Shown here: piece by piece, positions 9,235 to 30,600 of the stretch | Position numbering within the stretch: position 1 is the first letter of the stretch | Layout: each line of letters starts with the position of its first letter | DNA from: Clostridia bacterium | Lineage (GTDB): Bacteria > Bacillota > Clostridia > UMGS1883 | Direction of reading: 5' to 3' | Assembly: GCA_051866635.1 (NCBI GenBank) | Contig: JBJDXJ010000038.1 | Location: 64,001-128,000 of the forward strand | Length of the DNA: 64,000 bases | Made by a program: the position numbers and the translations under genes | The notes under the pieces: model-generated | Seen by the model: the letters and a program-made list of their open reading frames with translations, nothing else | What the model was told of the DNA's origin: nothing | Database searches by the model: none

Positions 9235-9243
9235 AATATAATC

Positions 9244-9407: not shown

Positions 9408-9445
9408 ATATGATAAAATTATATAAGTATGGGATGGTGATTAAT

Positions 9446-10147: not shown

Positions 10148-10161
10148 AGGAGAGGTAGAAA

Positions 10162-11585: not shown

Positions 11586-12437
11586 ATGAAGTTATTAACT
11601 AATGAGCTAATCCAAAAATTCAAAATTTACTTAACAAATGAAGAAAAAGCCCAGGCAACTATTGATAAATACTTGCGTGATATATACGCATTTATGGCTT
11701 GGCTTTGCGGCAAGGAAGTATGTAAGGAATATGTTTTGCAATATAAAAAAGAAATCTTAGAAAATTATGCTCCTGCAAGTGTGAATTCAATGCTTTCATC
11801 GCTCAATGCGTTTTTTGCTTATAATGAGTGGTATGAACTTAGAGTAAAATCCGTTAAAATTCAAAAGCAAATATTTGCAAGCAAGGACAGAGAACTTACC
11901 AAGACTGAGTATGAAAGACTATTGAATGCGGCGAAGAATAAGAAAAATGAAAGGCTGTATTACCTGATGCAGACTATTTGCAGTACGGGCTTGAGAGTTT
12001 CGGAATTAAAATTCATTACTACAGATGCGGTTCGATGTGGACAAGCAACCATTAACTGCAAAGGAAAAATGAGAATAGTTATCTTACCTAAGCAGCTTTG
12101 CAAAATGCTTACCATTTATGCAAAAGCAAACAATATAAAAAGCGGCTCCGTATTTGTAAGCAAAAACGGGAAGCCGCTTAACAGATCAAATATATGGTCC
12201 GATATGAAAAAACTCTGTGAATCTGCCGGAGTATCTGCTGAGAAAGTATTTCCTCATAATTTGAGACATCTTTTCGCAAGAACTTATTACTCTCTCCAAA
12301 AGGATGTAGTACGACTTGCTGATATTTTAGGTCATTCAAGTGTAAATACTACAAGGATTTATACTATGGAAAGCGGAGAGGTTCACAGAAAGCAAATTCA
12401 AAAATTAGGATTACTCCTGTGTAGCAATAAATTATAA
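11586..12437 (+). CDS. Tyrosine recombinase/integrase (Xer-like, probable invertase)
   Basis: Catalytic set intact: TGLRVSE (R), CKGK (K), HNLRH (HxxR), LGHSS (H), RIYT (Y). Confidence 0.95.
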   Translation: MKLLTNELIQKFKIYLTNEEKAQATIDKYLRDIYAFMAWLCGKEVCKEYVLQYKKEILENYAPASVNSMLSSLNAFFAYNEWYELRVKSVKIQKQIFASKDRELTKTEYERLLNAAKNKKNERLYYLMQTICSTGLRVSELKFITTDAVRCGQATINCKGKMRIVILPKQLCKMLTIYAKANNIKSGSVFVSKNGKPLNRSNIWSDMKKLCESAGVSAEKVFPHNLRHLFARTYYSLQKDVVRLADILGHSSVNTTRIYTMESGEVHRKQIQKLGLLLCSNKL

Positions 12438-12460
12438 CATAATTTGTATTATGTAGTGAC
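12431..12460. repeat. Recombination site 1 (Xer/dif-like): attataacataa-TTTGTA-ttatgtagtgac
   Basis: 12-6-12 layout overlapping the recombinase stop codon; the 18-bp core 12437-12454 is the exact reverse complement of 12690-12707. Confidence 0.85.
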
Positions 12461-12510
12461 ATTGTTGATGTATTCTCATTGTAGGAAGATACACAATATC
12501 AAATTTCACA

Positions 12511-12558
12511 CAAAAACAAGACCAATGATATTAGAAATTATTACATTGGTCTGTTTTT
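12511..12558. terminator. Bidirectional terminator-like hairpin inside the predicted invertible segment
   Basis: aaaaacaagaccaatg ... cattggtctgttttt (one bulge), with A and T runs at the ends. Confidence 0.5.
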
Positions 12559-12622
12559 CGTTGCCTCTTTTTGTTTGAATATCTGAAAAAGATATAAAAT
12601 TATGTAAATTAACTGCAAATTA

Positions 12623-12651
12623 TTGACTTTTATATATTCACATGCTATAAT
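12623..12651 (+). promoter_or_regulatory. Sigma-A promoter within the predicted invertible segment
   Basis: TTGACT-17 bp-TATAAT with TGn extended -10 (catgcTATAAT), facing 12848. Confidence 0.85.
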
Positions 12652-12683
12652 GGTAGCGTATAATTAGGTTTATTGTCTGTGCT

Positions 12684-12713
12684 ATTATAACATAATACAA
12701 ATTATGTAGTGAC
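12684..12713. repeat. Recombination site 2: attataacataa-TACAAA-ttatgtagtgac
   Basis: Arms identical to site 1; spacer is the reverse complement of the site-1 spacer. Confidence 0.85.
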
Positions 12714-12847: not shown

Positions 12848-15800
12848 ATGAAATCTAAAAAATTTACAGCTTGGATATTGGTCATGGCAATGCTTGTTAC
12901 AATGTTACCAAGCTCGCTTGCCTTAGCGACAGGTGATCATACAACACCGGCACCATATCCGGTAATTGTGACTGATGTATTTAGTGAAATGACTAATGAT
13001 ATCAGTGGTGTGGATAAAGGTACAGATTTAGACTTGACAGGAACAACAAATGATGCACTTCCGACTGTTAATTCAGCAGTTGGAGCGGAGACTGTACTTG
13101 ATGGTGTAGATGGTACAGTATACCATAATGCAGACAGCGAAATTAACAACATGAGAAGAAAACAAATTCTCACATTCGTTGCAAAATCTCAGGATGACAG
13201 CAACTTTATTAACAGCTCTACAAGCACGGGTGTGGCTGAACATGCTGTTGAAATCGCTTATTTGGATACAGACAGAGAACCTTTGGAAATAGATTTAGAC
13301 AGTGAGGAATTTGAGGTTATTGGCAGTGGAGATTGGAGCAACGCATGGATAGATCTTTCTCAAGACGTTCAGCAGACAGACCGTACACTGGAAACATTCC
13401 TTACAAAAGAGCTTGAGGGAATCAATCCCGAACTTTTGACCGCTGCACAGCTTTTTGCAACAGGTGATATGGTATCCTTCATGATTTACAATGTTATCAG
13501 AAGCGATTTTGCCGGTTATTTAAGAATTAAGATTACAGATAACAACGGCAACACCACAGTGCAGGACTATCCTATTGTAGCAGATGGTCAGTATCCCGCT
13601 GTTTCTATCAGCACTTCAACTTACAAAAATCCCGTAGGTGAAAATGTTGAAAATAGTGCAGTAACAACTGTTGCAGAAAATACATTTATTAATGAAATGG
13701 ATTTTGTAACTGTTATGGAAGATACAGAGGAAAACAAAGAAGAAAACGAAACCGATAATATTCATAAAAGCTACAGATGGCATAATCTTGATAAAGATGC
13801 ATTACAGAATGCTTTGAATTGGGAAGACGAAAACTATAAGCCGGAAGATATTTGGGCTATGGGTGATATTTCCATAGACGAAATAAAAATTTCAGACTTA
13901 TTAGTAACTTCCGGAATTGAAAGTGTTAAGTATTCGGTTGCAAATTACGGATTAAAAGAAAATGTAACTCCATCTACATTAGAAGGAACAATTGAACTTA
14001 CATATGATCCGGCAACAAAAACTTGTTCGGCAGGAACACCTATTGTAATCAGTAATGAAGGCTTTAATGTTTTGGCAATTACAGCAGTTGACAATTCAGG
14101 ACTTAAAACAACAAACAGATACTATTTCTACATGGATACTACAGCACCCAAAGCAAAGTTTGACCTTGTAGAATTGGATAAGAACGTTGTTTCCTTATTT
14201 ACTGATGCTGATACAGTAACAAACAGACAGCAAGCTATTGATATGAGTGAATCAGATGATGTAACGGCAAGCGTTGATGTGATTTCCGGGCTTGAAGATG
14301 CAACAGCAGGCGAAACAGAAAATAATAAGATGTATCAGTATCGCTTACTTGCAACAAAAGCAGGTGCAACAGAAGGCGGAAATGTACCTGATGGTTATAC
14401 AGCAACTGTTCTCGACAAAGAAGGAAATGATTTAAGCGGTTGGAAAATTTGGACCGGCGAAACAGAAACCCCTGTTATAGATAAAGAATTTGACGGTATT
14501 GTTCAGGTACGTGTTCAGGACAGAGCAGGTAACTGGTCACCTATCGTTTCAGTAACAAGTGATGGAAAAGAAACAATTATTACAGATAACACTAACCCTG
14601 TAATTGATGTTAAGGAATATGCCCTTGACACCAATGGCGATACAATCGGCAATACAGATGCAGAAATAATTGGCGGCACTGCTACAGATATTTTAATTAC
14701 TTCAGCAAGAGTAACTGAAACAACTGACGGTGAAATTGAAAATGAGGTTATTCATACAATCACAGGTGATGTGGCACCTTGGATTAATGATTCTGCAGTA
14801 TTAGAAGTAAAGATTACTGATGAGGATCTTGCTAATGAAATTCGTTCATCAGGTCTTAAAAAAGGTCAGATTAATGTAACAGCAGAATTTAATGCCGAAA
14901 ATGAAAATAAAAAGGTTAAAATCTGGAACAAAAATGGTGTTGACAAGAAAAATGTTGATGATTCTTTCAACCTTACAGAAGACTACATTTTCGGAACAGA
15001 AACCGACAAGGATTTAACATTCTATATTGAATATGAAGGAACAGGTGTTGTTGATATCACGGTTTCTGTTAAAGACCAGGCAGATGTAAATGATGGCGAT
15101 GTTTTCTCAACAATTTATACAACTCAGCTTAGAGTTGATAAAATCAATCCTTACATTATATATAAGGGATACGATATCACAGATAAAGCCAATGAAGATT
15201 TGTTGAAAGCAAACCATGAAAAAGTTGATTACGAAGTTCGTAATATGCCTTGGGGACCGAACAGCCAGGTTCTTGAAGTTGTTGTGAAAGATGATGATAT
15301 TACTCCGATACAGTCTAAGACTAAAAATATAAGATTTAACGCTGACAAAGAATTAGACTTGTATGAATACGTTGGTGGTGTATTCACAAAGATTAAGACT
15401 TATGCCGCAGGTAATGATAATGTAGTATCACTTAGTGATTGTGAAGAACTTGCTAATGAAAAGTATGAATCCAATGTTGGTTATAAGTTCTATCTTGTAT
15501 ATGAGGGTACAGGCATTGCAAAAGTTGAATTCTTTGCAGATGATTCAGCTACAGCACCCAACGTAAGAGATTATCCTTCTATAGCAACTGCTGCTGAGGC
15601 AGAACCTGTATTATACGATGCAATGCTCCGCGTTGATAAAATTAACCCTGAAATTAAAAACGTAAAACTTGTTGAAACAGATATAGACGTTGAAGATAAA
15701 GGTTGGAGTCTCTTCTCTTTCAACGAAACAAATGTTGAAGTTAATACAAGAAAGCAGATGAAGATAACATTTGAGATTGTTGATGAAAACACAACAACAG

Positions 15801-18800
15801 AACAGTCCGGTGTTAATATTCAGAACGAAAAGATATCAGGCGTAGATTTAATTGATGTATATAAAAATTATGTAGAAAAAGATAAAACACATCTTTATGA
15901 TAATAAGCCTACAACATATACAACAGATGATGTAAATGACAAGGCAGTAGATCCTAACATTGATTATATCCTTCTTCCTGTAGAAGCGGGTTCAATTAAT
16001 GGCACAGGCGGCAATTTTGAAGAAGCTGCATCTGCATCTAATGAAGCTATTGAAGCACTCGTAGCTGAATATCTTGATAAGGTATACAATGCAGATGGTG
16101 ATAAGTGTGAATGGAAGAAAGCATCATGGAAAGATGGCGGAATTGTTGTTCCTGATGAATTCCAGGGTGCAATCGTTATCAGAACAATTGACCGTGTAGG
16201 TAATATTGATTACGCAGAAGCTATCACATTTGTTGCTGAATCAAGAGAAGCATTAATTGACTTTAATCCTCAGAACGGATATATTTGGTCTCAAAACAAT
16301 TATGGTTGGTCAAAACGTGATTACGATTATGTTGAAATTCGAGTAAAAGATGATAACGAAGACAAAGTAGATGCTTGGCTCGAAAATGTGTTTATCAGTG
16401 TGACTGACCTTGAAGGTAACGACATCTCAACAAAGGAAACAGTTAAGTTTGCTCCAAATGATCCTTCATTAAAGATTGATCCTTCTGCATATACTTATGT
16501 TTCTTTAAGTGATTTCACAAATGAAGCTGCATACGGTTATGATGTAATTGATGCATACGGTCTTGTTGAAAAACTTTATCGCGATAGCGAAGGATATATC
16601 CACCTTGGTTATGTAAGAGTAGCTGAAAGTGCTCAGATTAAGGTAACCATTTTCGATAAGGCTAAACATAACGATGTTGAATATACAGGTAATAAGACAA
16701 CAGGTATCTGGACATCAAGAATAGACAGAACAGCACCTACTGTAAATGTTAAGGTTGTTGCAATTCCGGCAAGCGAACACGGTGCTGCTGACAACAATAA
16801 GGTTGTTCTTGGTTTGAAAGCCGATATTATTGATAATGAATCCGGTGTTGCACCTTATATTACTGATGGTACTTACAATGTTTATACTCCTGAAAATGTT
16901 CCCGCATCCGGAGTATTTGCCTCTGATAAATCTTTCTTATATAAAGTAACAAATGATGCAGATGCTGAAGTTGAAAGATTTGATAGTGGAACATTCAACA
17001 CAAGACAGTATGAACTTCCCGGTTTACAGTATGCTTTGATTCCTGAAAATGGCAAATTGGAAAATGTTAAACCGTGGAATTTTGAAACTGATCCTAAAAC
17101 CGTTTATGATGAAAACGGATACAACGGAAACATGGGTGCAACATATGTATGGCATAACTATGTTGATGACAAAACACCTATCCTTCCGGAAGAAGGCTTT
17201 GATGGCTACATTGTTGTAAGAGCTATTGACAAAGCAGGCAATATCACTGTTATTGGTTGTGCTCCCACAATTGATATTGAAGCAGCAGAAGGTTGGCAGA
17301 AAGAAACACAGCTTATCCATGTTAAGGCTTCTCCCAAAACAGGAAATATTACAACTGTAGAATATATGGGTAATAACAATCTTCTTACTCATGATGAAGC
17401 GGGCAATTTGGTAACAAGAAATATTTATGCCGAGGCAATCAGTGGTGCAGGTACATTCATTGAAGTTACAGAAGAAGGTATTACAGATGTTATAATTACA
17501 GCTTCTGAAGAGTATACAGCACAGCAAACAGTTAAGGCAGCTTCCGATGAAAGAAATGCAACTTGGGAAGGCTCCATGATTGTTGGTAATGCTACACCTT
17601 CCGGATATGAAGATTTCAAATTCCAAACTGTTCAGGTGAAGATTGATAAGACAGCTCCTACGTTTGAATTTACATTAGTTGATGCAGCAAATGAAGAAAT
17701 AGTTACTTCTTCTAGAGGATTTGGAATTAAAGTAGCAGACGGTGAGGAAATTGTAGATCCTATTCCTAACTTACCTGATGTTGTCGGTTATCGTTCACAT
17801 ATTTCTTCCGGAATTGCAAAGGTTGAATATTGCGTAGCGAGTGAAGGAATGGAAGAATGGCATGAAGTTGATAAAGCAACATGGGAAACAGGTGTTATTA
17901 AAGCATATGAAGACAATGCAGCTATAACAGGTACTGTTAAAGTTCGTGTTACAGATAATGCCGGTAACGTAACTGAAAAATCCAAGTCTATCAATATTGA
18001 TAGTGCAATACCGATTATCAGCATCTCCAAGTCTTATGATTCAAAATGGAGCAATAAGCCTGTAGAAGTGAAAGTAACAGTTTCTTCAGGTGCAGAATTC
18101 TCTGACATTAGTAGCGTTTATTATACAGTAACCGGTGGAACAGAAGGTGAACTTCCTGTTACAGGCGGTACAATCACAATAGGCCAAGAAGGTGTGTATG
18201 AAGTTAGTGTAAAAGCATTAACAAAGAGCGGAAAATCTCTTGAAGCATGGACAGATGTTCATATTGACTGGACAGCACCTGATTTTGAACTTGAATTAAC
18301 GGATGGCGAGGATGTTCTTGCAGACGGTGCTAAGACAGGAAATGCAGTTACAGTAAATGTTAAGGATATTATTGACAACGTATCCGGAGTTAAGTCTATT
18401 GAATGGTGCAAGGTAGCAGAAGGCTCTGTAAATGAGCAGTGGAATAACATAACATCTGCTAAAACTGCAACAATAGAAAAAGCAGAAGCATTTACAGGAA
18501 CAGTAAAGGTTCGCGTAACAGATGAAGCAGGTAATGTTACTGTTAAGACTCAAAGAGTTATCCATAACGATGACGTGGCTATGCCTGAGTTAGTAGGTGT
18601 TGCCTCCGGTTCTTGGAAGATTGACAACGATACAGTAACAGTTGCATCTTATGCCGACGATAAAGTTAAGGTTCGTTATTCAAATAACGGAGAACCTTGG
18701 ACAGATGTAATTGAAAACTCTATCACGCTTGTTCCCGGAGCTAACCGCATCAGACTTCAGGCCTACAGAGAAGATTGCGGCTGTGAAAGTGATGTAAGAA

Positions 18801-20545
18801 CTTATGTAATTAATTACGAACCTATTGAAAATACACCTATTATTGATATTAGACATGATTACGGTAATAAGTACATGACTGTTGGCGGTTCAGATTTTGA
18901 AATTGTAAATTCTACAAATGAATCGGTAACTGTTAGCCTTGTGCCTAATAAAGGAACATGTGAAGCTGATATCCAAAGTGTAGTATACGACTTATATCTT
19001 AATGGTGTGGCTACAGAAAAAAATAAAAATATTTATCTTCCCATAACAGGTGGTACTTTAACGCTTTCTGAAGAAGGCGAATGGGCAATCGGAAATGTAA
19101 GAATAACAACAGAAAGCGGTAAAGAGTATAATCTTCTTCCTGATTATCAAGTAGTTGCTTTAATAGACAAGACTGCTCCTGTATTTGATAATGCAGAAAC
19201 AAAACTTGTTGGTATAGGCGGTGAATTGACATTATTTGGATTGGCTGAACCTACAAATGAGCAACAGAAATTAACAGCAAAAGCTAAAGATAATTGCATA
19301 ACATATAAAGGCGGAGCATCTACTGTTTTATTCTATGAATATGCATTGCTTGAAAAAGGCATGATTGAGCCTAATTGGGAACCATTGAAGTATGAATGGA
19401 ATGACACAAAAGTTGAAACCGATGCAATTATAACAACATCTTTTGAAGGAACAGTTCTTGTTAGAGTTACAGACGTAGCAGGTAACAGCTCCGTAAAATC
19501 CATTCAGGTATTTGCAGAAGGAACCAAACCTGAAATCTCAATTACAGCTCCTTCATCTTGGCAGACAGAAGATGTTATGATCAAGGTTGATGTAGTTGAT
19601 AAAGGATTATCTTCTACAATAAAGAGTGTTACATATGAATTATTAAATGGTGCTCATAAGGAAAAAGGTGAGCTTTCGTCAATAGGTGGTTCTATCGAAA
19701 TCACACGAGAAGGAATAACTAAAGTTAAAATAACTGCAGAAGATTATGCCGGAAACATTGAAACAATAGATACTTGTGAAGTAAAGATTGATAAAACTGC
19801 TCCTGAATACTCAGGCATAGTTGAGTTGCTTGGTGTTTATAATGAACACGAAATTCCCGAAAGTAAATGGAACGTTATCCATGACGGTTGGACATATAAC
19901 CATAATGTAAGCCTTGAAGGAATTGAAGATACTCATTCGGGAATTAAGAAAGTGAATATTACTTTTACAGGTGATGACGGTGCCGTAACTGAAACTACAC
20001 TTAATTCAAGTCAGACAAGTAGCAGCTTCTCTGAAAACGGCAAGTATGATCTTACTTTGATTGACAATGCAGGTAATGTTAGAAATATCAGCTTTACAAT
20101 CAATAAAGATTTACAGAATGTAATCAATGTCATTGGTATAGATGAATTCGGTAAGCTGAATATCGCAGTTACAGATGGTGATGATATGCTTACGTTCTAT
20201 AAGAAAGAAAACAGCGAAAGCAAATACACCAAGATGTATAATGGTATAACAAACCAGTTAATTGATGGTAAGACCGGCGTACGTTATATCTACGGACAGA
20301 ATGATGCAGGTAAGAAATCAAATACATTGTATGTAATTGTTGCTCCAAGTACTGAATATGGAATTTCATTAATGAGTCTTAGCTCGATACCTAACAGATA
20401 TTTGAATATTGATGCTGAAGGCGAAAAGGTTACTGTTACGAAGATTGATGAAATTTTCAATCCCGGAATCAATGAAAACATCTCCGTTGGTTCTGTTGTT
20501 GAAATCAACGAAGATGGTATATATTCAATTACAACTAATGATTAA
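12848..20545 (+). CDS. Giant secreted Ig-like repeat protein (adhesin-like), 2565 aa, no recognisable anchor
   Basis: Signal peptide MKSKKFTAWILVMAML; many DxAGN ... IDxTAP/VDKINP repeat signatures; acidic; no SLH, LPxTG or C-terminal TM segment. Confidence 0.8.
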   Translation: MKSKKFTAWILVMAMLVTMLPSSLALATGDHTTPAPYPVIVTDVFSEMTNDISGVDKGTDLDLTGTTNDALPTVNSAVGAETVLDGVDGTVYHNADSEINNMRRKQILTFVAKSQDDSNFINSSTSTGVAEHAVEIAYLDTDREPLEIDLDSEEFEVIGSGDWSNAWIDLSQDVQQTDRTLETFLTKELEGINPELLTAAQLFATGDMVSFMIYNVIRSDFAGYLRIKITDNNGNTTVQDYPIVADGQYPAVSISTSTYKNPVGENVENSAVTTVAENTFINEMDFVTVMEDTEENKEENETDNIHKSYRWHNLDKDALQNALNWEDENYKPEDIWAMGDISIDEIKISDLLVTSGIESVKYSVANYGLKENVTPSTLEGTIELTYDPATKTCSAGTPIVISNEGFNVLAITAVDNSGLKTTNRYYFYMDTTAPKAKFDLVELDKNVVSLFTDADTVTNRQQAIDMSESDDVTASVDVISGLEDATAGETENNKMYQYRLLATKAGATEGGNVPDGYTATVLDKEGNDLSGWKIWTGETETPVIDKEFDGIVQVRVQDRAGNWSPIVSVTSDGKETIITDNTNPVIDVKEYALDTNGDTIGNTDAEIIGGTATDILITSARVTETTDGEIENEVIHTITGDVAPWINDSAVLEVKITDEDLANEIRSSGLKKGQINVTAEFNAENENKKVKIWNKNGVDKKNVDDSFNLTEDYIFGTETDKDLTFYIEYEGTGVVDITVSVKDQADVNDGDVFSTIYTTQLRVDKINPYIIYKGYDITDKANEDLLKANHEKVDYEVRNMPWGPNSQVLEVVVKDDDITPIQSKTKNIRFNADKELDLYEYVGGVFTKIKTYAAGNDNVVSLSDCEELANEKYESNVGYKFYLVYEGTGIAKVEFFADDSATAPNVRDYPSIATAAEAEPVLYDAMLRVDKINPEIKNVKLVETDIDVEDKGWSLFSFNETNVEVNTRKQMKITFEIVDENTTTEQSGVNIQNEKISGVDLIDVYKNYVEKDKTHLYDNKPTTYTTDDVNDKAVDPNIDYILLPVEAGSINGTGGNFEEAASASNEAIEALVAEYLDKVYNADGDKCEWKKASWKDGGIVVPDEFQGAIVIRTIDRVGNIDYAEAITFVAESREALIDFNPQNGYIWSQNNYGWSKRDYDYVEIRVKDDNEDKVDAWLENVFISVTDLEGNDISTKETVKFAPNDPSLKIDPSAYTYVSLSDFTNEAAYGYDVIDAYGLVEKLYRDSEGYIHLGYVRVAESAQIKVTIFDKAKHNDVEYTGNKTTGIWTSRIDRTAPTVNVKVVAIPASEHGAADNNKVVLGLKADIIDNESGVAPYITDGTYNVYTPENVPASGVFASDKSFLYKVTNDADAEVERFDSGTFNTRQYELPGLQYALIPENGKLENVKPWNFETDPKTVYDENGYNGNMGATYVWHNYVDDKTPILPEEGFDGYIVVRAIDKAGNITVIGCAPTIDIEAAEGWQKETQLIHVKASPKTGNITTVEYMGNNNLLTHDEAGNLVTRNIYAEAISGAGTFIEVTEEGITDVIITASEEYTAQQTVKAASDERNATWEGSMIVGNATPSGYEDFKFQTVQVKIDKTAPTFEFTLVDAANEEIVTSSRGFGIKVADGEEIVDPIPNLPDVVGYRSHISSGIAKVEYCVASEGMEEWHEVDKATWETGVIKAYEDNAAITGTVKVRVTDNAGNVTEKSKSINIDSAIPIISISKSYDSKWSNKPVEVKVTVSSGAEFSDISSVYYTVTGGTEGELPVTGGTITIGQEGVYEVSVKALTKSGKSLEAWTDVHIDWTAPDFELELTDGEDVLADGAKTGNAVTVNVKDIIDNVSGVKSIEWCKVAEGSVNEQWNNITSAKTATIEKAEAFTGTVKVRVTDEAGNVTVKTQRVIHNDDVAMPELVGVASGSWKIDNDTVTVASYADDKVKVRYSNNGEPWTDVIENSITLVPGANRIRLQAYREDCGCESDVRTYVINYEPIENTPIIDIRHDYGNKYMTVGGSDFEIVNSTNESVTVSLVPNKGTCEADIQSVVYDLYLNGVATEKNKNIYLPITGGTLTLSEEGEWAIGNVRITTESGKEYNLLPDYQVVALIDKTAPVFDNAETKLVGIGGELTLFGLAEPTNEQQKLTAKAKDNCITYKGGASTVLFYEYALLEKGMIEPNWEPLKYEWNDTKVETDAIITTSFEGTVLVRVTDVAGNSSVKSIQVFAEGTKPEISITAPSSWQTEDVMIKVDVVDKGLSSTIKSVTYELLNGAHKEKGELSSIGGSIEITREGITKVKITAEDYAGNIETIDTCEVKIDKTAPEYSGIVELLGVYNEHEIPESKWNVIHDGWTYNHNVSLEGIEDTHSGIKKVNITFTGDDGAVTETTLNSSQTSSSFSENGKYDLTLIDNAGNVRNISFTINKDLQNVINVIGIDEFGKLNIAVTDGDDMLTFYKKENSESKYTKMYNGITNQLIDGKTGVRYIYGQNDAGKKSNTLYVIVAPSTEYGISLMSLSSIPNRYLNIDAEGEKVTVTKIDEIFNPGINENISVGSVVEINEDGIYSITTND

Positions 20546-20612
20546 TTAAACTAATTGTGCAGAGAGTAGTTTATGCTACTCTCTGCCAAAACTTAGAGAA
20601 AGGACAGATACT

Positions 20613-21965
20613 ATGAAAAAAATTATTTCTTGCATTCTTGCAGTTACAATACTGTGTTGCAGTGCTGTCGCTTTTGCTGATGAAAAAGAGGTTGTAATTG
20701 ATACTGAAGTGCCTGTATTTAAAGATTTAGTGGATGGTTCAAGCTATTCCGGAAGCAAAACAGTTGAAATTGCAGATTTAAGCCAAGTTAACTGTGTTTT
20801 AATGAAATCCGGAAAAGGAACAGTTAGTTTTGCCGGCAAAACATTTGAAGGTTATACGAAAGTTGCGGAAGAATATAATCTTGATTGTATAAACTACACT
20901 GAGGTAGCTACTGTTTCTGATGTAGGTTCGTATATGATATATGCAACAGACATCTACAATCACGATATTGCTGTAAGATTTACAATAACCAAATCAGGCG
21001 AAGGCACCGGCGGTGGCGGAGGCGGTGGTAGTGACACTACAACAGTTAAACAACCATACGCTAACGGCGATCCTGATAATGTAAAAGGAACTGTGACAGC
21101 AGGTAAAAAAATCACATTAGATACTGATACAGGAAATGCGAAGATATATTATACAACCGATGGAACGACCCCCACAAGTAAAAGCAGGCGTTATGATGCA
21201 AACATCGGCATCATTTTGAAGGAAGGTCAGATCCTGAAAGCAGTTGCGATTAAGGGCGGCATATCAAGTGAAGTCTCCGAGTGGATATGTACTTCATTCA
21301 AAAAGGGTGAATCTGTTGTTAAAGATGTGTTAGAAACAGAAGAACATATTGTTTATATGTTCGGTTATCCGGATAAAACCTTCGGACCAAACGACAATAT
21401 GACACGTGCAGAAGTAGCAACAATGTTCACAAGACTTATGAAGGATAAAATGGATAGTGATGTCGTATATGAATCTTCATTTTCAGATGTTACGCCGGAT
21501 GCATGGTATTATAACTATGTGGGATATATAGAAAAGTTCGGAATCATCACCGGTTATGAAGATGGTACGTTCAGACCTCAAAACACTATAACAAGAGCAG
21601 AATTTGTTACTATGGCAAGTCGTTTCGCAACTGTCAGCAAAGAGTTTGAGTGTGACTTTACAGATGTTACAACAGAACATTGGGCATATGATTACATTGC
21701 ATTTGCCGCCGGCAACAGTTGGATTGGTGGCTATGAGGATAACACATTCAGAGCCGATAATACAATAAGCAGAGCAGAAGTTGTAACTATTGTAAATAAT
21801 ATGCTTATCAGAAATGCTGATAAAGAATATGTGAATGCTAATAAAGCATTGCTTACATTGTTTGCTGATGTGAACGAAGAACATTGGGCTTATTATAATA
21901 TCATTGAGGCAACAAATGAACATACTTATAAAGTAAATGACAATGTGGAAAAATGGAATCAATAA
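20613..21965 (+). CDS. SLH-anchored protein: Ig-like module, Gly linker, Fn3-associated/chitobiase-type domain, 3x SLH
   Basis: Signal peptide; IYYTTDGTTP; GYPDKTFGP..TRAEVA, GYEDGTFRP..TRAEF, GYEDNTF..SRAEVV. Confidence 0.88.
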   Translation: MKKIISCILAVTILCCSAVAFADEKEVVIDTEVPVFKDLVDGSSYSGSKTVEIADLSQVNCVLMKSGKGTVSFAGKTFEGYTKVAEEYNLDCINYTEVATVSDVGSYMIYATDIYNHDIAVRFTITKSGEGTGGGGGGGSDTTTVKQPYANGDPDNVKGTVTAGKKITLDTDTGNAKIYYTTDGTTPTSKSRRYDANIGIILKEGQILKAVAIKGGISSEVSEWICTSFKKGESVVKDVLETEEHIVYMFGYPDKTFGPNDNMTRAEVATMFTRLMKDKMDSDVVYESSFSDVTPDAWYYNYVGYIEKFGIITGYEDGTFRPQNTITRAEFVTMASRFATVSKEFECDFTDVTTEHWAYDYIAFAAGNSWIGGYEDNTFRADNTISRAEVVTIVNNMLIRNADKEYVNANKALLTLFADVNEEHWAYYNIIEATNEHTYKVNDNVEKWNQ

Positions 21966-21978
21966 GGAGGTATGGAAG

Positions 21979-23082
21979 ATGAGAAAAGTACTTTCTATAT
22001 TGATGGCTGTTATTATTATATTGACTCTTAGCAGTGTGATTGTGGTGTTCGGTTACGATGGTAATGTTTTGTATTCAGATGTAAACTCAAATCATTGGGC
22101 ATTTGAAGCTATATCTTTTGCTACGGAGAAAAAGTGGTTTAATGGATATTCCGACGGCACTTTTTGTCCCAACAATACAATTTCACGGGCAGAGGCTACA
22201 AAAGTATTGGTTTCTTTGCTTGAAAGAGACGTTAAAAAAATATCAGATACCAGTTATAGTGATGTATTCGTTACAGATTGGTATGCCCCTTATATAGAGG
22301 CGGGGAAGGATTTGTTTCTCAACGTCAAGGATGGCGGAAAATTCAAGCCAAATACTCCTATCTCTCGTGAAGAAACTGTTTATGCTTTGGTTCGTGGAAT
22401 GAAATTTAACATTTCTGTTGAATATGTGGATCAGTCAATGCTTGAAAAATTCACTGATGCCAAGGAAATAGATGATTCGATAAAGCCATATTTTACAATA
22501 GCGATGCAGAAAAAGTTAATTTCAGGATATAGCGATGGAACTGTTAAAGCAAAAGATTCGTTAACCAGAGCAGAGTTTGCAACATTGCTGTACCGAGCGT
22601 ACCGGATTAGCCAAGGAAAAGGCATTGACCAAATCGAAATGACAAATGATGAGGCAAAAAGTTACGAAGAGTCTTATGAAGACTATGAATTAACCGATTC
22701 AAGTGAAATAGCTTTTAGAAAGGCTGTTGTAACACTGGTTAATGAGATACGTAATGACTATGGTTTGAATCAGCTTTCAGAAAATCCCGATCTTGCAAAA
22801 GTAGCACAGATGAAAGCTGAAGATATGCAAAATAATGACTATTTTGACCATCAGTCTCCGACTTATGGTTCACCTTTCGATATGATGGATGAATTCGGCA
22901 TATCATATATAAGTGCCGGAGAAAACATAGCAAAAGGACAATCAACTCCCCAAGAGGTTGTAGATAGTTGGATGAACTCAATGGGACATAGAGAGAATAT
23001 TTTAGATCCTTCATATGATCAGATAGGAATTGGCTATTCGGCAGATGAAGATATTTGGGTTCAAATGTTTATAGGTCAGTAA
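21979..23082 (+). CDS. SLH (x3) + CAP/SCP domain protein
   Basis: N-terminal SLH motifs; C-terminal LVNEIR, AQMKAEDM, YFDHQSPTYGSPF, GENIA, WMNSMGHRENIL; start after aaggagg. Confidence 0.9.
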   Translation: MRKVLSILMAVIIILTLSSVIVVFGYDGNVLYSDVNSNHWAFEAISFATEKKWFNGYSDGTFCPNNTISRAEATKVLVSLLERDVKKISDTSYSDVFVTDWYAPYIEAGKDLFLNVKDGGKFKPNTPISREETVYALVRGMKFNISVEYVDQSMLEKFTDAKEIDDSIKPYFTIAMQKKLISGYSDGTVKAKDSLTRAEFATLLYRAYRISQGKGIDQIEMTNDEAKSYEESYEDYELTDSSEIAFRKAVVTLVNEIRNDYGLNQLSENPDLAKVAQMKAEDMQNNDYFDHQSPTYGSPFDMMDEFGISYISAGENIAKGQSTPQEVVDSWMNSMGHRENILDPSYDQIGIGYSADEDIWVQMFIGQ

Positions 23083-23105
23083 TTATAAAAGAAAGGGAGA
23101 TTTAT

Positions 23106-25076
23106 ATGAAGAAAATAGTAAGTTTAATAATTTGTGCGGCATTCTTATTTTCCATGACGGTAACATCCTTTGCGGCACTGTCATATGGCTCCGAATGGGA
23201 TGGATATTATCATGACGCAACAACAACGTATGCAGATGTACCTTCTTCTCATTGGGCATACAATGCAATTATGAGATCTACTGAGAAGAATTGGTTTGGT
23301 GGTTATCCCGATGGAACTTTCAGACCTGATGGTCCTATTAAAAGAGCAGAAGCTCTTAAGGTTTTTGTTGTATTTTTAGGATTAGAGCTTGAAGATGTAA
23401 CAGAAAGTACTTTTTATGATGTAGATCCTAATAAGTGGTATGCACCTTACATAGAAGCCGGAAAAGACTTGTTCCCTACACATACAACAAATCAGGGAAA
23501 GACACCATTTAATCCTGAAATGCCTGTGACAAGAGAAGATACAATCTATGCTCTTGTTAAAGCACTGGGTTACAATGTTGGTGTAAAATATGTTGATGAG
23601 TCTATATTAAATATGTTTTCAGATAAAAATAGCATTTCGGGAGATATAAGACCTTATTTTGCTATTGCACTTCAAAACGAATTAGTATCAGGATTTCCTG
23701 ATGGAACAATTCGTGCACAGGATTCTCTTACAAGGGCAGAATTTGCAACGTTGTTATATCGTGGTAGCTTTGTAGGATTTAATGATGCGTATGAAGCTAT
23801 TATAGACTCTGTAACCGTAACACCTACAACCAGCATCGAAATGACTGTCGGCGAAACAATCACATTATCGGCAAGAGCTACATACACAGATAAAACGAAC
23901 AAGCCTTATACCGAATTATCGCCCTATGATGCAAACGGCAATGGAGTTATAACATTAAAAGGAACAACTATCACAGCCGTTAAGGAAGGTACAGCAGTAA
24001 TCAAATACAATGATTCTTATTTGAAAAAAGAATCTTTGACAATAACTGTTAAGAATCCTACTGAAGGTCCAAGCTTGAAAGTTACAGATTATGACGACAT
24101 AACAAAAGAATCAACTATGGAAATCAAGGGCCGTGTTACTGACAAAAACGGTGATGTTGATTTAACCTGTAATGGCAAGGATGTTGCTGTAAAAAGCGAT
24201 GGTAGCTTTGCTGTAACAGTTTCACTTGTAATTGGTACAAATAACATTCAGTTTGTGGCTGAAAATATTTATGGTGTGGAAACAACAAAGAGCGTTACTA
24301 TTATAAGAGAAAAAGAAGAAACAACATCAACAACAGTACCCGACACAGATTCCGATGGTGACGAAAAGGAAGAAAAGGAAGAAAAAGAAGATAAAGAAGA
24401 AACTGTCTCTGCTCCAACAACGCCTTCAAGCGGAGAAGAAGGAACACCTTATTTAACCTTTGATAAGAGCACGGGAACAATTACAAAATGCGGCACAAGC
24501 GTTGCCGATATTGAAATTCCTGACAAAATCGAAGGTGTAAACGTGCACATCATAGGCGAAGGTGCTTTTGAAGGTTGTACTTATCTTGAAAGTATTACAT
24601 TCCCTTCAACTTTAAAGACCATAAAGGCATCTGCATTCAGCAGATGTACACACCTTTTAGAAGTGAAAATTCCCGAAGGAACAACAAGCATTGGTGCAAA
24701 TGCATTTGATGGATGTGTTTATCTTACAGATGCTGTCATACCCGAAGGTATTAAGAAGATTGCAGATGAATTGTTCATCGGATGTAAGAGGTTGAAAAAC
24801 ATCTCTTTACCCGAAACAGTTAAAGAAATCGGTGCAAATGCCTTTGAAGGTTGTAAGAGCTTGGAAGAGGTTGTATTGCCCGAATCTACAACTACTATAA
24901 AAGACGGCGCATTTAAAAATTGTGGCGGTCTTCAGAAAATCGTTATTCCCGACAATGTAACAACTATTGCAGATGATGCATTCGACGGATGTAACGCACT
25001 CACAATCTATGCTTCCGTTAGTTCGTATGCAATAGAATATGCAAAAGAAAACGGTATTGCTTGGGCAATTCTCTGA
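23106..25076 (+). CDS. SLH (x3) + Ig-like + BspA-type leucine-rich repeat protein
   Basis: SLH motifs; acidic linker; repeated IxxxAFxGCxxLxxIxxP units. Confidence 0.9.
   Translation: MKKIVSLIICAAFLFSMTVTSFAALSYGSEWDGYYHDATTTYADVPSSHWAYNAIMRSTEKNWFGGYPDGTFRPDGPIKRAEALKVFVVFLGLELEDVTESTFYDVDPNKWYAPYIEAGKDLFPTHTTNQGKTPFNPEMPVTREDTIYALVKALGYNVGVKYVDESILNMFSDKNSISGDIRPYFAIALQNELVSGFPDGTIRAQDSLTRAEFATLLYRGSFVGFNDAYEAIIDSVTVTPTTSIEMTVGETITLSARATYTDKTNKPYTELSPYDANGNGVITLKGTTITAVKEGTAVIKYNDSYLKKESLTITVKNPTEGPSLKVTDYDDITKESTMEIKGRVTDKNGDVDLTCNGKDVAVKSDGSFAVTVSLVIGTNNIQFVAENIYGVETTKSVTIIREKEETTSTTVPDTDSDGDEKEEKEEKEDKEETVSAPTTPSSGEEGTPYLTFDKSTGTITKCGTSVADIEIPDKIEGVNVHIIGEGAFEGCTYLESITFPSTLKTIKASAFSRCTHLLEVKIPEGTTSIGANAFDGCVYLTDAVIPEGIKKIADELFIGCKRLKNISLPETVKEIGANAFEGCKSLEEVVLPESTTTIKDGAFKNCGGLQKIVIPDNVTTIADDAFDGCNALTIYASVSSYAIEYAKENGIAWAIL
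23230..23765 (+). repeat. SLH-coding direct repeat, copy 1 (copy 2 at about 25282-25817)
   Basis: Near-identical DNA at offset 2052, including an identical run 23346-23470 = 25398-25522. Confidence 0.9.
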
Positions 25077-25145
25077 TAATATATTAACGATACGGAAAGG
25101 CGGCATACTATGCCGTCTTTCCAAAAATAGAAAGGAGTTCTTAAC

Positions 25146-27260
25146 ATGAAATGTAAAGCAAAAAAGATAGTCACATTATTGTTAAGTGTTTTTATAATCT
25201 TATCTGCAATCAATTTTAATGTATTTGCTTTGGGGTACGGTTCTGAATGGGCAGAATACGACAATTCCAAGGAACAAAAGTATGCAGATGTACCTTCTTC
25301 TCATTGGGCATATGAAGCAATTAGCAGAGCAAGCAGCAAAAATTGGTTTGGTGGTTATCCCGATGGAAATTTCAGACCTGATGGTCCTATTAAAAGGGCA
25401 GAAGCTCTTAAGGTTTTTGTTGTATTTTTAGGATTAGAGCTTGAAGATGTAACAGAAAGTACTTTTTATGATGTAGATCCTAATAAGTGGTATGCACCTT
25501 ACATAGAAGCCGGAAAAGACTTATTCCCTACACATACAACAAATCAGGGAAAAACACCATTTAATCCTGAAATGCCTGTGACAAGAGAAGATACAATTTA
25601 TGCTCTTGTTAATGCACTTGGTTATCAGGTTGGTGCAAAATATGTTGATGAGTCTGTATTAGATATGTTTACAGATAAAAATAGCATTTCAAAAGATATA
25701 AGACCTTATTTTGCTATTGCACTCGAAAATGAACTTGTGTCAGGTTTTCCGGATGGAACAATTCGTGCACAGGATTCTCTTACAAGAGCTGAATTTGCAA
25801 CACTTTTATACAGAGGATCTTTCGTAGGACATAGTGACAACTACGAGGCAAAAATATCAAATGTAACAGTTTCTCCGGAGTCACCGATAGAAATTGAAAT
25901 TGGTGAAAGTGTTACGTTGACAGCAAGAGCAACATATACAGATGGAACAAATCAGGCATATTCAAGTTTGCAGCCTTATGATGCCGAAAACAATGGTGTT
26001 ATATCCTTAAGCGGAACAACAATCACAGGAATTAAAGAAGGAACAACAACAATTAAGTATAATGATTCATATCTTAAGAAAGATAGTTTAACGGTTATTG
26101 TTAAAAAGCCGACGGATGCTCCTAAAATAAAAGTTACTGATTATCCTGATACAACTGATGAAAGCAGAGTAACCATTTCCGGTACAGTTATTGACAAAAA
26201 TGTTGCAACTGTTGATTTTACATGCAACAGTAAAGATGTATTGTTAAATGAAGATGGTAGCTTCAGCACGATTGTATCGTTAAGACCGGGTGAAAATACT
26301 ATCAAGTTCACGGCGGTAAATGAATATAGTATGTCAGCAGAGAAAACAATAGAAGTCACAAGAACAAGTGCTCCGATTATCTTTATAACAAAATACAAAA
26401 ATAGCACAGTTGCTTCTAAAACAACTGTTGAAGGTATAATTACAGACAGCGATCTTTCTACCGTAAAACTTTCCTGTAACGGTGCAGATATAAGAATAAA
26501 TGCAGATGGTAGTTTTGCAACGGAAGTTGCATTGAAAATGGGCAAAAATCCTTTTACATTTACTGCAACAAATCAATACGAAAAAACAGCACAGCAGGCA
26601 ATAGAAATAACACGGTATGAGATTATCGATGAACCTAACGATGTTCCGGATGTTCCGGATTATGAAAAAATAAAAGGTAAGGTAGAACTTGTTTTTGTAA
26701 TTGATGCAACAGGCTCTATGTGTGATGAGATAGGAAATGTTAAAACAAATATCAGTGAATTTGCGGCACATTTAGAAGAAATGGGCGTAGATCTTAAAAT
26801 GAGTGTAGTTGAATACAGGGATATTACTTGCGATGAGCCTACTAAAGTTCATAAATATGCAGGCAATACATGGCACACAAGTTCAGAAAGCTTAATAACC
26901 ACATTGGCGTCTATCGATGCTTCCGGTGGCGGAGATGCTCCTGAAAGTGTTCTTGACGGATTCGGTCATGTTTTAGACAACAGACATATGGATTGGTCAG
27001 AGGATGCATTTAAGTTTGCTGTTCTTCTTACAGATGCAAGCTATAAGACAGAAAATACATACGGTTATAGCAGTCTAGAAGAAATTGCTGATAAGCTTGC
27101 ATCAAAGAACTTGAATACATCTGTTATAACTTCAACCTCTCTTTTTAAGACCTATAATGTTTTAACCAGTAAAACAGGCGGTTTACAGGTTGATATAACA
27201 TCAGACTTTGATAAGGCTTTGTCAGATTTGGCAGATAAAATTATTGACAGATCTTTGTGA
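25146..27260 (+). CDS. SLH (x3) + Ig-like + von Willebrand A domain protein
   Basis: SLH paralogous to the upstream gene; LVFVIDATGSM (MIDAS-like), EYRD, GGGDAPES, LLTDA. Confidence 0.9.
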   Translation: MKCKAKKIVTLLLSVFIILSAINFNVFALGYGSEWAEYDNSKEQKYADVPSSHWAYEAISRASSKNWFGGYPDGNFRPDGPIKRAEALKVFVVFLGLELEDVTESTFYDVDPNKWYAPYIEAGKDLFPTHTTNQGKTPFNPEMPVTREDTIYALVNALGYQVGAKYVDESVLDMFTDKNSISKDIRPYFAIALENELVSGFPDGTIRAQDSLTRAEFATLLYRGSFVGHSDNYEAKISNVTVSPESPIEIEIGESVTLTARATYTDGTNQAYSSLQPYDAENNGVISLSGTTITGIKEGTTTIKYNDSYLKKDSLTVIVKKPTDAPKIKVTDYPDTTDESRVTISGTVIDKNVATVDFTCNSKDVLLNEDGSFSTIVSLRPGENTIKFTAVNEYSMSAEKTIEVTRTSAPIIFITKYKNSTVASKTTVEGIITDSDLSTVKLSCNGADIRINADGSFATEVALKMGKNPFTFTATNQYEKTAQQAIEITRYEIIDEPNDVPDVPDYEKIKGKVELVFVIDATGSMCDEIGNVKTNISEFAAHLEEMGVDLKMSVVEYRDITCDEPTKVHKYAGNTWHTSSESLITTLASIDASGGGDAPESVLDGFGHVLDNRHMDWSEDAFKFAVLLTDASYKTENTYGYSSLEEIADKLASKNLNTSVITSTSLFKTYNVLTSKTGGLQVDITSDFDKALSDLADKIIDRSL

Positions 27261-27587: not shown

Positions 27588-27630
27588 AAAATACAGATAA
27601 GTATTGGAAAATTTGAAAGGATGGTGCAAT

Positions 27631-30600
27631 ATGAAAAAACTGGTTTCAATTATTCTGGTTGCCCTTATGGTTCTGTCATTTGTCCCTTCGGTTGGGGCAG
27701 CGTATGTAGCTTACAGCGGAACTTGCGGCGACAATGTCACATGGGAATTGGATGATGAAGGTGTTTTGACCATTTCAGGTATCGGTGCCATGGATGATTA
27801 TAGTTGGTCATCTTCTGACTTACGAGCTCCATGGTCAAAGTACCGTTCCGTGATTGAAAAGGTTATTATAAGAAACGGTGTAACAAGGATAGGCGAGTCA
27901 GCTTTTGACGGCGAATCCTATAGCTATTTGACGGAAGTAACAATCCCTGACAGTGTAAAAAGTATAGGTAATTATGGATTCTATGCTTGCTCTTTTATTA
28001 GTGATGTTTACTATGAAGGTACAGAAGATGAATGGAAAGATATTTCTGTTTATTCGGGAAATACAACACTGAAAAAAGCAAATATTCATTATAACTCATC
28101 AATGGAGGTAGGCGGTAAATGCGGTGAAGAAGCTTATTGGAAGTTTTTTGACGGTGTGCTGACAATCTACGGCAAAGGTGTAATGGATGACTACACCTCA
28201 ATACAGGAAACATCCTGGTACAGTTATGTAAGTGAAATTAAAAAGGTTGTTATCGAAAACGGTATTACAACAGTAGGTGCATATGCATTTTCAGCGTTAA
28301 CACAGCTTAAGGAAATTGATTTTGGTAATACAGTTGAATACATAAAAGATTGTGCCTTTTACAAATGTACAAAGCTTGAAGAGTTGAATTTACCCCAAAG
28401 TTTAAAAGATATTAAAAAAGGTGGCTTTGGCTATTGCATTTTGTTAAAGGAAGTTACACTTCCTGAAAATGTTGTTGCATTGGGCGCGGCTTCCTTCGGC
28501 AACTGTATAGCTTTGGAAAAGGTAATACTTTCAGAACGTATTTTTGCTATGGGAACAGGTGCCTTTGCATATTGTAAATCACTTAAAGAAGTTGTAATCC
28601 CTGCAGAGATGACAGTACTGTCTAAAAATTTATTCGCAGGATGCACAAGTTTGGAATATGTATATATACATAGTGGTATTGAAACTATTTCCGAAGGTGT
28701 TTTTTACGGATGTAAAAATCTTAAAGAGGTGACAATACCTAAAAGTGTAACATCTATTGAGGTAGACTCCTTTTATAACTGTAAAGCCGTTTTAAGTGTT
28801 GTGAAGGGTTCCTATGCCGAAACTTATGCAAAAGAACAGGGCATGAACTATGTATATTTTGTTGGTACACTTCTTTCCATCCAAGTTATAGGTGATGATG
28901 GAGAAGAGTTGAAGGATGGATATACTGTTAATTGGTATGTTCAGGGTACTGACAATGCGGTAGGTCAAGGACCGGAAATCTCGGTGGAAGATACAACAAA
29001 AACCTACGAATGTAAGATTGACTTTGACGAGGATTTAGCTTTAACATATTACCGCTTAAATGAAAGAATAACCGTAGAGTCAACTGATAGAAAGGTCTGG
29101 TTAAAAGCCATTCCTACGGTAGCTTTGGAAGGTGTTGTAACCGATATTGACGGCGAACCTTTGGACGGTGTTTCAGTCCGGGTTGAACAAGACTTCAGCA
29201 TGGGCGTTGAAAAGACAGAAAGTGCGGCTACAGGAAATGATGGATTGTACAGCAAGGACGTAAAGCTTGTACCTACACGTGTCACGTTTTCAAAGGACGG
29301 ATATTATTCAAAAACTATCAACGTAATAGATTATGACAACATATTTGACAGAGAAGCAGGTTCAGAAGTTGTTCTTGACAAATTGCCTGACAGTAAAATA
29401 AAAATGTCCTATGTGGTTAATTCCCTTAAAGAAGACGGAGAGGATATAGAGCAGTTTATATATAATGATATAGCATATTTTGATTATCTATTATATAACA
29501 ACACTGAGGATTGTGAAATTACTGAGTATTCATACGAGCATCCCTATTTTGTAATAGATTCGGGCGTTGCAAAAGAAGGTGATGAAATCACCCTTTCAAT
29601 TACAGATGCACAAAATATTGTAACAGCAGATGATATCACATTTGTGTTGGGTGAAGCAGGCAGTGCGGAAGTTACGGCAGAACTTTTGTATAACGGATGT
29701 TTCAAGGCAGATGTTTTCTCGGAGAATGAAACAATTGTTATTGTTTTTGATAAGACAGGTGAATTTATAAAGACTTATTTTGTACAAGGCACCAAATTTA
29801 AGTCCTCCAATTTGCCCGAAGGTGATTATACAGCAGTATTTTTGAAAAAGACACAGTATTTTTCAAAGGTAGAGTCTTTGGGAAAACTTAGTGAAATCGG
29901 TCTTAAAGAAACTGACTATGTTTTGAAAAATGTAACAGTTGAAAAGGGGAAAATAAATGCGTTAGGTGATGTTAATGTTCCCGATTTTGACGAAGAGCTG
30001 CTATATTGCACCGAATATGCAAGTGTGGTAAATAACAGCTATCAGGCCGTAACAGGTCAGCTTATACAGATTGATGCAAAATACAAGGTTAAAGACGGCT
30101 ATGAAACAGGTGGTGAAAAACTTGTATTTGAACTGCCTGAAAATATAAGCCTTGTTTCAAAGAGCGTGGTTGTAAATTCCCAAGTGGCAAATTATGAAAC
30201 ACAGGGAAATAAAGTTACGGTTTATACTAACACAAATGAAGCAAAGGTACGTTTTTATGTGACAAGTAATGTTTCGGGAGAATATGCAATAACTGGCTAT
30301 ATTGACTGCAAGACAGACCAAAACAACATTATTAAGCCCATAGGCACATGTACCCTTAATGTTACAAATGCCGATATCAGTGTGCCAGAACGCACAAACA
30401 AAAGCAGCGTTACTGTCAGTGGTGTAGCCATGGCAGACAGCACTGTAACAGTGTATGACAACTATAAAAAGGTTGGAACAACAACGACAAACGGTAATGG
30501 TAACTGGAGTTTGACATTCAATCTTCCTAACGGTGACTATTCATACTACTACCACACTATTTACGCAACTATTACAAATCCAAAGTATGCAGGCTGTGTT

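Follow-up and report, generated by a model that had tools for sequence, protein, structure and literature searches.

A giant secreted protein and its SLH neighbor

The subject of this analysis is a pair of adjacent surface protein genes in a 64,000-nucleotide stretch of DNA from a Clostridia bacterium (assembly GCA_051866635.1, contig JBJDXJ010000038.1, positions 64,001 to 128,000), which was analyzed at its full length and is referred to below as the window. The first gene encodes a giant secreted protein built of immunoglobulin-like (Ig-like) repeats (hereafter, the giant), and the second encodes a protein with three S-layer homology (SLH) domains (hereafter, the partner). According to the original prediction, the giant lacks a wall anchor and ends one strand short of a complete Ig-like module, and the partner docks it to the cell by supplying the missing strand from its own N-terminus. 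The features of the locus are listed in Table 1.

The domain searches identified the giant as a carrier of OmpL47-type/Big_3_2 Ig-like modules. Both curated cut-offs were passed, with 59.4 bits against 40 for NF047446 (barrel_OmpL47) and 25.9 bits against 23.3 for Big_3_2 (PF12245, Pfam). The repeat pattern on which the original prediction was built proved to be real, as the count gave 11 D.AGN-like sites, all of them with a G/hydrophobic strand ahead, and seven [IV]D.[TI].P junctions. The curated OmpL47-type model stops at residue 2314 of the giant, the I of IDKTAP, which in this family assigns the strand ahead of the junction to the domain before it. The translated open reading frame (ORF) ends in INEDGIYSITTND followed by the stop codon, and the same end is also written VVEINEDGIYSITTND or VGSVVEINEDGIYSITTND.

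The absence of an anchor was likewise borne out. No SLH or other wall-anchor family was matched in the giant at E ≤ 0.1 (Pfam), hydrophobic 19-residue runs (Kyte-Doolittle value > 1.6) were found only in the signal peptide, and the motifs LPVTG (1769) and LPITG (2064) lie inside modules and are not C-terminal sorting signals. The giant would be exported by the Sec pathway without a wall anchor of its own. In the genome to which the window belongs (96.6% complete, families counted by Pfam matches), no match was found to sortase (PF04203), WxL (PF13731), or WxLIP_PGBD (PF06030). The same genome contains 76 SLH matches, and frames of 1816, 2448, and 2740 aa carry SLH domains in cis. These results show that SLH is the wall-anchoring route of the organism, among whose large surface proteins the anchorless giant is an exception. 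Three PS_pyruv_trans genes are also present, which is compatible with a pyruvylated wall polymer but is not specific for it.

The description of the downstream gene in the original prediction was confirmed. A Shine-Dalgarno (SD) sequence, GAAAGGA, is located 8 nt ahead of the ATG. The protein begins with the signal peptide MKKIISCILAVTILCCSAVAFA, followed by DEKEVVIDTEVPVF; the cleavage site was read from the AxA pattern, with no prediction tool. The signal peptide is followed by a short extension, one Ig-like module, a glycine run, an Fn3_assoc/CHB_HEX_C_1 domain, and the three SLH domains, which scored 122.8 bits against a cut-off of 20.8 for PF00395. The structural alignment tool VIA matched the Fn3_assoc region with 8ayr_A (Z 10.2, root-mean-square deviation (rmsd) 1.8, 73 aligned residues).

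The two genes are separated by a spacer of 67 nt and lie in different frames, and the spacer contains stop codons in the frame of the giant (TAA TTA AAC TAA). Translation of both ORFs as one product by readthrough or frameshifting was rejected on these grounds. No promoter-like site was found in the spacer. The intercistronic stem-loop showed compensatory changes in 8 of its 12 pairs across five loci, and it may set the expression ratio of the two genes or stabilize the upstream mRNA.

Table 1. Positions of the features of the giant–partner locus in the window.
Feature	Position	Strand	Remarks
Tyrosine recombinase, 283 aa	11586..12437	+	Pfam Phage_integrase, E 8e-30; directly upstream of the giant gene
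Invertible promoter segment	12437..12707	.	Perfect 18-nt inverted repeats 12437-12454 / 12690-12707
Promoter-like site TTGACT-17(TG)-TATAAT	12623..12651	+	11/12 matches; points at the giant gene (ON)
Giant secreted Ig-repeat protein	12848..20545	+	2565 aa, signal peptide, without recognizable wall anchor
Family-specific terminal module of the giant, residues 2500-2565	20345..20542	+	66 aa; ends in the conserved hairpin VEINEDGIYSITTND
Intercistronic stem-loop	20559..20586	+	Without T-run; 12 predicted pairs, not called as terminator
SLH partner (putative adaptor) protein	20613..21965	+	450 aa; ORF, Pfam
Mature N-terminal extension DEKEVVIDTEVP of the partner, residues 23-34	20679..20714	+	Candidate donor strand plus junction
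Ig-like module of the partner, ~residues 35-127	20715..20993	+	Complete with its own last strand (AlphaFold2, VIA)
Fn3_assoc / CHB_HEX_C_1, residues 158-222	21084..21278	+	Pfam, E 8e-14 / 6e-15
Three SLH domains (wall anchor)	21351..21872	+	Pfam SLH, E 5e-36, three stretches
Three further SLH proteins (SLH+CAP; SLH+Glucodextran_B+LRR_5; SLH+Glucodextran_B+VWA)	21937..27260	+	Pfam

Conservation of the split and of the two termini

The original prediction presupposed that the two genes stay together, and the partner gene was indeed found directly after the giant gene in all five loci with a readable context, which come from related genomes: the window, L002, L003, G027, and G033. The identity of the C-terminus of the giant to that in the window was 83% in L002, 82% in L003, 62% in G027, and 52% in G033, and the spacer in these four loci was ~70 nt. 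The downstream gene had its own SD sequence and signal peptide in 5/5 loci.

A search with the last 316 aa of the giant (residues 2250–2565) yielded 13 orthologs (P0003–P0015) of 2267–2936 aa, with identities of 35–83% and query coverage of 92–100%. All of them stop at the same point, ..EDG[IV]Y.[IV].. plus 0–4 residues. PF00395 was listed for none of the 13 in the precomputed Pfam column, and none was a fused form. A profile of the last 76 residues (five rows) was then scored against 1.84 billion representative sequences and gave 14 matches at E ≤ 0.001. Seven of these were family members or their fragments (P0063, P0064, P0013, P0014, P0010, P0011, and P0066), and in each of the seven the match ended no more than two residues from the C-terminus. 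An unsplit, internal copy of the module did not turn up among these representatives, with P0067, P0069, and P0071 left uninspected. Three other matches (P0065, P0070, and P0072) were rejected as carriers of the module, being unrelated repeat proteins that have only a SVSINSDGTY-like hairpin in common with it. The 151-aa protein P0068 has a 26-residue stretch in common with the terminal module (KKIDEIFNPGINKNISVGSVVEINE), followed by an unrelated acidic, Pro-rich sequence, and may have arisen by chimeric assembly or by recombination. A search for the unsplit form with residues 23–135 of the partner, a weak search, gave 190 longer candidates, none at E ≤ 0.01. Thus, the split position is identical in 13/13 orthologs and no fused homolog was detected; judging from these alignments, the position at which the giant ends is not an accident.

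The same data bear on a simpler explanation, namely that a continuous Ig-repeat–SLH protein was broken by decay or accidental gene fission, with the downstream part being inert or independently expressed. Proteins that combine Ig repeats, Fn3_assoc, and SLH domains and are thereby anchored in cis do exist (P0016, P0019, P0040, and the frames of 1816–2740 aa in the same genome). However, the common stop point of all 13 orthologs, the separate SD sequence and signal peptide at all five loci, the difference in frame, the stop codons in the spacer, and the strong protein-level constraint on both termini make such an origin highly improbable.

The terminal module was compared with three upstream modules of the repeat type (M1–M3) using hhalign. 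Its last 16–18 columns (VGSVVEINEDGIYSITT) matched the E–F hairpin of M1, M2, and M3 (template columns 50–66 of 89, 71–86 of 115, and 51–68 of 92, respectively), with E-values of 0.003, 0.0036, and 0.00068 and probabilities of 9–27%. Past this hairpin, M1–M3 run on for 23–29 columns, which comprise the end of strand F, the D.AGN loop, the G strand, and the junction, whereas the giant stops after two residues. In the profile comparison, its stop lies about two residues ahead of the position of the D in DxAGN. According to a manual count, the distance from the P to the acidic residue is 66 aa in the terminal module and 72 aa in M3 without its G strand; this length fits a truncated module but is no proof of homology. 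The hairpin match and the early stop agree with the statement that the giant may be one strand short, which therefore relies on a short motif; homology over the whole domain was not detected. The AlphaFold2 model of the last 175 aa of the giant (12-row alignment) had a mean predicted local distance difference test (pLDDT) score of 45.7, with the penultimate domain also poorly modeled. A sequence search of the PDB with the same 175 aa gave only spurious RecA P-loop-like matches. A Peptidase_G2 lead for the terminal 76 aa from the ESM Atlas was dismissed because its best score (0.84, recognition 1707) was under the marks of the tool.

The other side of the putative joint is the N-terminus of the mature partner, which was examined in an alignment of 13 sequences. 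Residues 24–36 are nearly invariant: E24, V27, I29, D30, T31, E32, V33, P34, and F36 are identical in all sequences, and E26 and V28 are conserved in at least 90%. Compared with the G027 partner, 37 of the 40 leading positions are identical, but in the remainder of the Ig module the number falls to 25 of 67; the respective values for G033 are 26/40 and 31/67. Synonymous changes occur in the first 40 codons (2–4 per 20 codons). Thus, the constraint acts on the protein, and an RNA or DNA element was ruled out as the main cause of the conserved 5′ end.

The mature partner begins with such a strand plus junction (EVVID-TEVP), ahead of which there is no domain. The junction motif [VIL]x[IV]Dx3P occurs nine times in the 19,337 residues of the 35 window frames of at least 250 aa; the giant accounts for six of these occurrences, the mature N-terminus of the partner for one, and two lie elsewhere. 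Judging from this frequency, its position at a mature N-terminus is unlikely to be due to chance.

In the AlphaFold2 model of the partner, which was built on 13 close sequences (mean pLDDT 56.6, predicted template modeling (pTM) score 0.29), residues 1–33 had pLDDT values below 50 and no secondary structure. A sandwich was predicted over residues ~34–127, with strands at 43–126 and pLDDT values of 57–84 per block. In VIA alignments, complete Ig/MG-like domains covered the model from residue 31/32 to residues 126–128 with Z values of ~6, for example 4qrb (Z 6.2, rmsd 2.5, 74 aligned residues) and 2p9r_B (Z 6.2, rmsd 3.4, 80 aligned residues). Such middling Z values show a common fold only, and what matters here is the aligned range, outside which lies DEKEVVID (residues 23–30). 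The shallow 13-row model weakly suggests that the extension, with its alternating apolar residues V27, I29, (T31), and V33, is not part of the fold of the partner itself. On the whole, the N-terminal strand of the original prediction was recovered as a near-invariant peptide outside the predicted fold of the protein that carries it.

The conservation of this peptide could also have nothing to do with the giant. The latter would then be released to the medium or matrix or held by unrecognized means, the SLH protein would function independently and owe the conservation of its N-terminus to export, processing, or another ligand, while IDTEVP would be an ordinary start of an Ig module. The signal peptide of the partner is unusually conserved as well, and such conservation is itself unusual for a signal peptide. 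In addition, IDTEAP-type junctions are found within ordinary proteins anchored in cis, P0016 among them, and a 1983-aa LRR_5 protein of the window (27604..33555) likewise has no SLH match or obvious partner. The absence of any specific interaction nevertheless seems rather unlikely to us: the two genes remain neighbors, the stop falls at exactly the same position over 35–83% identity, the partner carries next to no payload apart from one Ig module and Fn3_assoc, and the junction motif is hardly to be expected at a mature N-terminus.

A possible two-part adhesin and its relation to known systems

From the sequences, their conservation, the adjacency of the genes, the lack of an anchor, and the position of the extension outside the modeled fold, all of which were observed, we infer both the binding of the giant to the partner and its mode by strand complementation. 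The locus may represent an operon for a phase-variable, two-part surface fiber. The partner would be a dedicated adaptor, whose three C-terminal SLH domains would hold the wall polymer, while its free, invariant 12-residue extension would bind the conserved 66-aa C-terminal module of the giant. The most likely mode of binding would be an antiparallel arrangement of the extension along the last strand of the giant (GIYSITTN), in place of the G strand plus IDxTAP that is found between modules. Joined in this way, the two proteins would look like a single uninterrupted tandem-Ig stalk with SLH domains at its end. Our preferred explanation, to which we assign a probability of about 0.4, is the two-part adhesin as such, i.e., the SLH protein acting as adaptor of the giant by means of its N-terminal peptide and the C-terminal module of the giant. 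The more specific version, in which the SLH adaptor completes the last Ig-like module in trans with a 12-residue strand, by a single and apparently chaperone-free joint under the control of a recombinase switch, is doubtful. Of the docking proposed in the original prediction, the conserved pair, the fixed split position, and the near-invariant N-terminal peptide outside the predicted fold were borne out, and the joint between the two proteins is putative.

Several observations weigh against the two-part adhesin or its proposed mode. The five loci come from related genomes and are not independent samples. A hidden Markov model search of the terminal module against the giant gave no match beyond the module itself, and whole-domain homology to other Ig modules was undetectable, with hhalign giving 9–27% for one hairpin; the module may therefore be small but complete, and of a different domain type. 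The signal peptide of the partner (20613–20678; MKKIISCILAVTMLCCSAVAFA in most of the 13 sequences) is about as conserved as the extension, and part of the N-terminal conservation may have another cause. With 13 close sequences and a pTM of 0.29, the low N-terminal pLDDT is weak evidence. The candidate strand is short, with an apolar face consisting only of V27, I29, and perhaps T31 and V33. Position −4 is K in the partner versus V/I/T in the junctions of the giant, and the junction of the partner reads IDTEVP, not IDKTAP. A single co-change between the termini was seen (in G033, the tail SIITNN with QTVIID in the partner), which is too few for a test. Finally, known donor-strand systems use a chaperone, and no candidate for one was present among the Pfam matches of the operon, although no systematic search was made.

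The family-specific nature of the terminal module, which has no whole-domain similarity to Ig modules, would also fit docking of the two proteins without strand complementation. In that case, a complete small module would bind the Ig module of the partner or another SLH protein of the operon (e.g., the one with VWA), and the N-terminal peptide would be a flexible tail at most. The three further conserved SLH proteins carry binding-type domains (LRR_5, VWA, and CAP). A design of this kind is familiar from cellulosomes, in which SLH scaffoldins provide anchorage by cohesin–dockerin pairs and a large protein without an anchor is held on an SLH protein via a module pair. On the other hand, the Ig module of the partner is its most variable part (25/67 compared with G027) and the peptide is invariant, which is the opposite of what a conserved domain–domain interface would show, and neither Cohesin nor Dockerin_1 was listed for the giant or the partner at E ≤ 0.1 (Pfam). 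Docking through another interface is thus distinctly unlikely. The adaptor proposed here would still be similar to cohesin–dockerin anchoring in that an anchorless giant would be tethered non-covalently to an SLH wall protein via a C-terminal module; it would differ in that a 12-residue peptide, in place of a folded receptor domain, would do the binding.

In chaperone–usher and type V pili, an incomplete Ig fold is completed by the N-terminal extension of another subunit. The principle proposed for the giant and the partner is the same; however, those pili are Gram-negative homopolymers that depend on a periplasmic chaperone and usher or on lipoprotein–protease pathways, whereas a single heterodimeric joint is proposed here. 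The same type of repeat (D.AGN...IDxTAP) is found in OmpL47-type/Big_3_2 proteins with SLH in cis, e.g., P0016 from Paenibacillus, and the giant and the partner read together have the same Fn3_assoc-plus-SLH end architecture. Those proteins are single polypeptides; here, the break falls after the F-like strand and ahead of the strand plus junction, and a separate signal peptide precedes the downstream part.

The nearest precedent appears to be the WxL (Elr) pilus of the Gram-positive Enterococcus faecalis, which follows the same logic. According to a bioRxiv 2026 preprint, the large tip adhesin ElrA terminates in a WxL domain of Ig-like type without its last strand, the small base subunit ElrB consists of an N-terminal donor strand plus LPXTG, and the donor strand is oriented antiparallel to the acceptor's C-terminal strand (10.64898/2026.10.17.759780). 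The pair described here is not a member of this system, because each of its defining components was tested and found to be missing. The giant has no WxL match and lacks W in its last 200 aa, and neither PF13731 nor PF06030 was matched in the genome. The anchor is SLH instead of LPXTG and sortase, the latter not having been found in the genome. There is also no polymerizing pilin and no chaperone candidate, and the partner adds a complete Ig module and Fn3_assoc. The novelty claimed in the original prediction, of an anchoring mode not known from Gram-positive SLH systems, has to be updated: donor-strand docking in a Gram-positive bacterium is described in that preprint. For SLH systems, a full-text literature search, which matched an archaeal AbpX preprint and two reviews, found no description of donor-strand or strand-complementation anchoring. 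If true, the SLH-anchored donor-strand joint would be new, although the principle itself is known.

The promoter switch, the neighboring genes, and the meaning of the pair

The first of the two perfectly (100%) complementary inverted repeats upstream of the giant gene begins at the stop codon of the recombinase gene, and 235 nt lie between the arms. The same 283-aa recombinase gene is located at the same place in G027, and matches to it were found in G027, G033, G064, and G065. The inverted repeats are also present in G027, where the segment between them aligns in reverse (82.7% over 272 nt) with both flanks aligning forward. There, the same promoter site lies on the minus strand and faces away from the giant gene. 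In G033, the segment is also reversed relative to the window. Hence, repeats flank a promoter-bearing segment beside a recombinase gene (window 12437–12707; L011 2605–2883) and both orientations are seen, as expected for an invertible promoter; in the assembled consensus the window is ON and G027 and G033 are OFF, with the orientations observed in different genomes.

Inside the segment (window 12510–12561), an imperfect 18-nt hairpin (83%) is preceded by an A-run and followed by a T-run; it has a counterpart in G027. This hairpin may be a terminator whose location with respect to the promoter changes when the segment inverts. Elsewhere in the genomes of the relatives (G027:C20, G033:C28, G064:C9, and G065:C30/C28), paralogs of the 283-aa recombinase (65–74% DNA identity) were found, and their presence suggests several such switches per genome. 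On contigs G064:C69 and G065:C62, which carry the giants closest to that of the window (L002/L003), the distance from the recombinase to the giant gene is ~1.1 kb versus 0.4 kb, and the switch segment of the window has no match. This indicates that the regulatory region was replaced or has diverged there.

In the cwpV switch of Clostridioides difficile, a terminator forms downstream of the promoter, and the recombinase gene is located elsewhere. By contrast, the recombinase described here is encoded right beside the switch, and the segment itself carries the promoter-like site. The two systems are alike in having a short invertible element with inverted repeats, a tyrosine recombinase, and a large wall-protein gene downstream with ON and OFF states (PMC2784873).

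The G027 cluster has the same gene order as the window: recombinase, giant, partner, SLH protein, SLH/Glucodextran_B/LRR_5 protein, and SLH/Glucodextran_B/VWA protein. In L002 and L003, ORFs of similar size occupy the place of the further SLH genes. Downstream of this cluster, the 1983-aa protein of the window at 27604..33555 (LRR_5, CarboxypepD_reg, Big_6, and Fn3_assoc, with no SLH match) ends in ...ASESVVSH. It is not followed by a partner gene; in G027, a subtilase is encoded at this place. Upstream of the recombinase (4444–11364), the window encodes a 1596-aa protein (GH88, Laminin_G_3, Big_4, and sialidase N-terminal domain), a HAD hydrolase, and a second GH88 protein. The context before the recombinase is thus glycan-degrading in the window, versus an MgsA-type AAA+ ATPase in G027.

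The giant family is rare and patchy: it is carried by 3 of 64 genomes of the family, 3 of 87 of the order (G000 included), and none of nine congeners. A profile search of the genome contigs with the C-terminus of the giant returned the same four loci only, and the back-translated EVVIDTEVP pattern found only the three known partner genes in the same contigs. A scan of JGI metagenomes with the profile of the C-terminus gave no further loci. Among the metagenomic stretches with the EVVIDTEVP pattern, of which L017 was a third match, L015 and L016 were rejected as partner genes since they encode unrelated proteins. Two sequencing runs, from bovine gut and from manure, contained a small share (0.04) of the words of the family at the contig level, which serves as a lead only. 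The ecological reach of the family would accordingly be modest.

If the proposed joint is true, completion of a fold in trans would reach beyond pilus polymerization to the anchoring of a single giant adhesin, and it would extend from the sortase/LPXTG system to the SLH wall-binding system that is dominant in many Clostridia and other Bacillota. It would also explain how "anchorless" giant surface proteins of SLH-using gut anaerobes stay on the cell. The 12-residue peptide would offer a handle to detach or label such giants, and the two termini would constitute a natural split-Ig pair for protein engineering. The invertible promoter, for its part, clearly exemplifies a phase-variable surface architecture among uncultured gut Clostridia.

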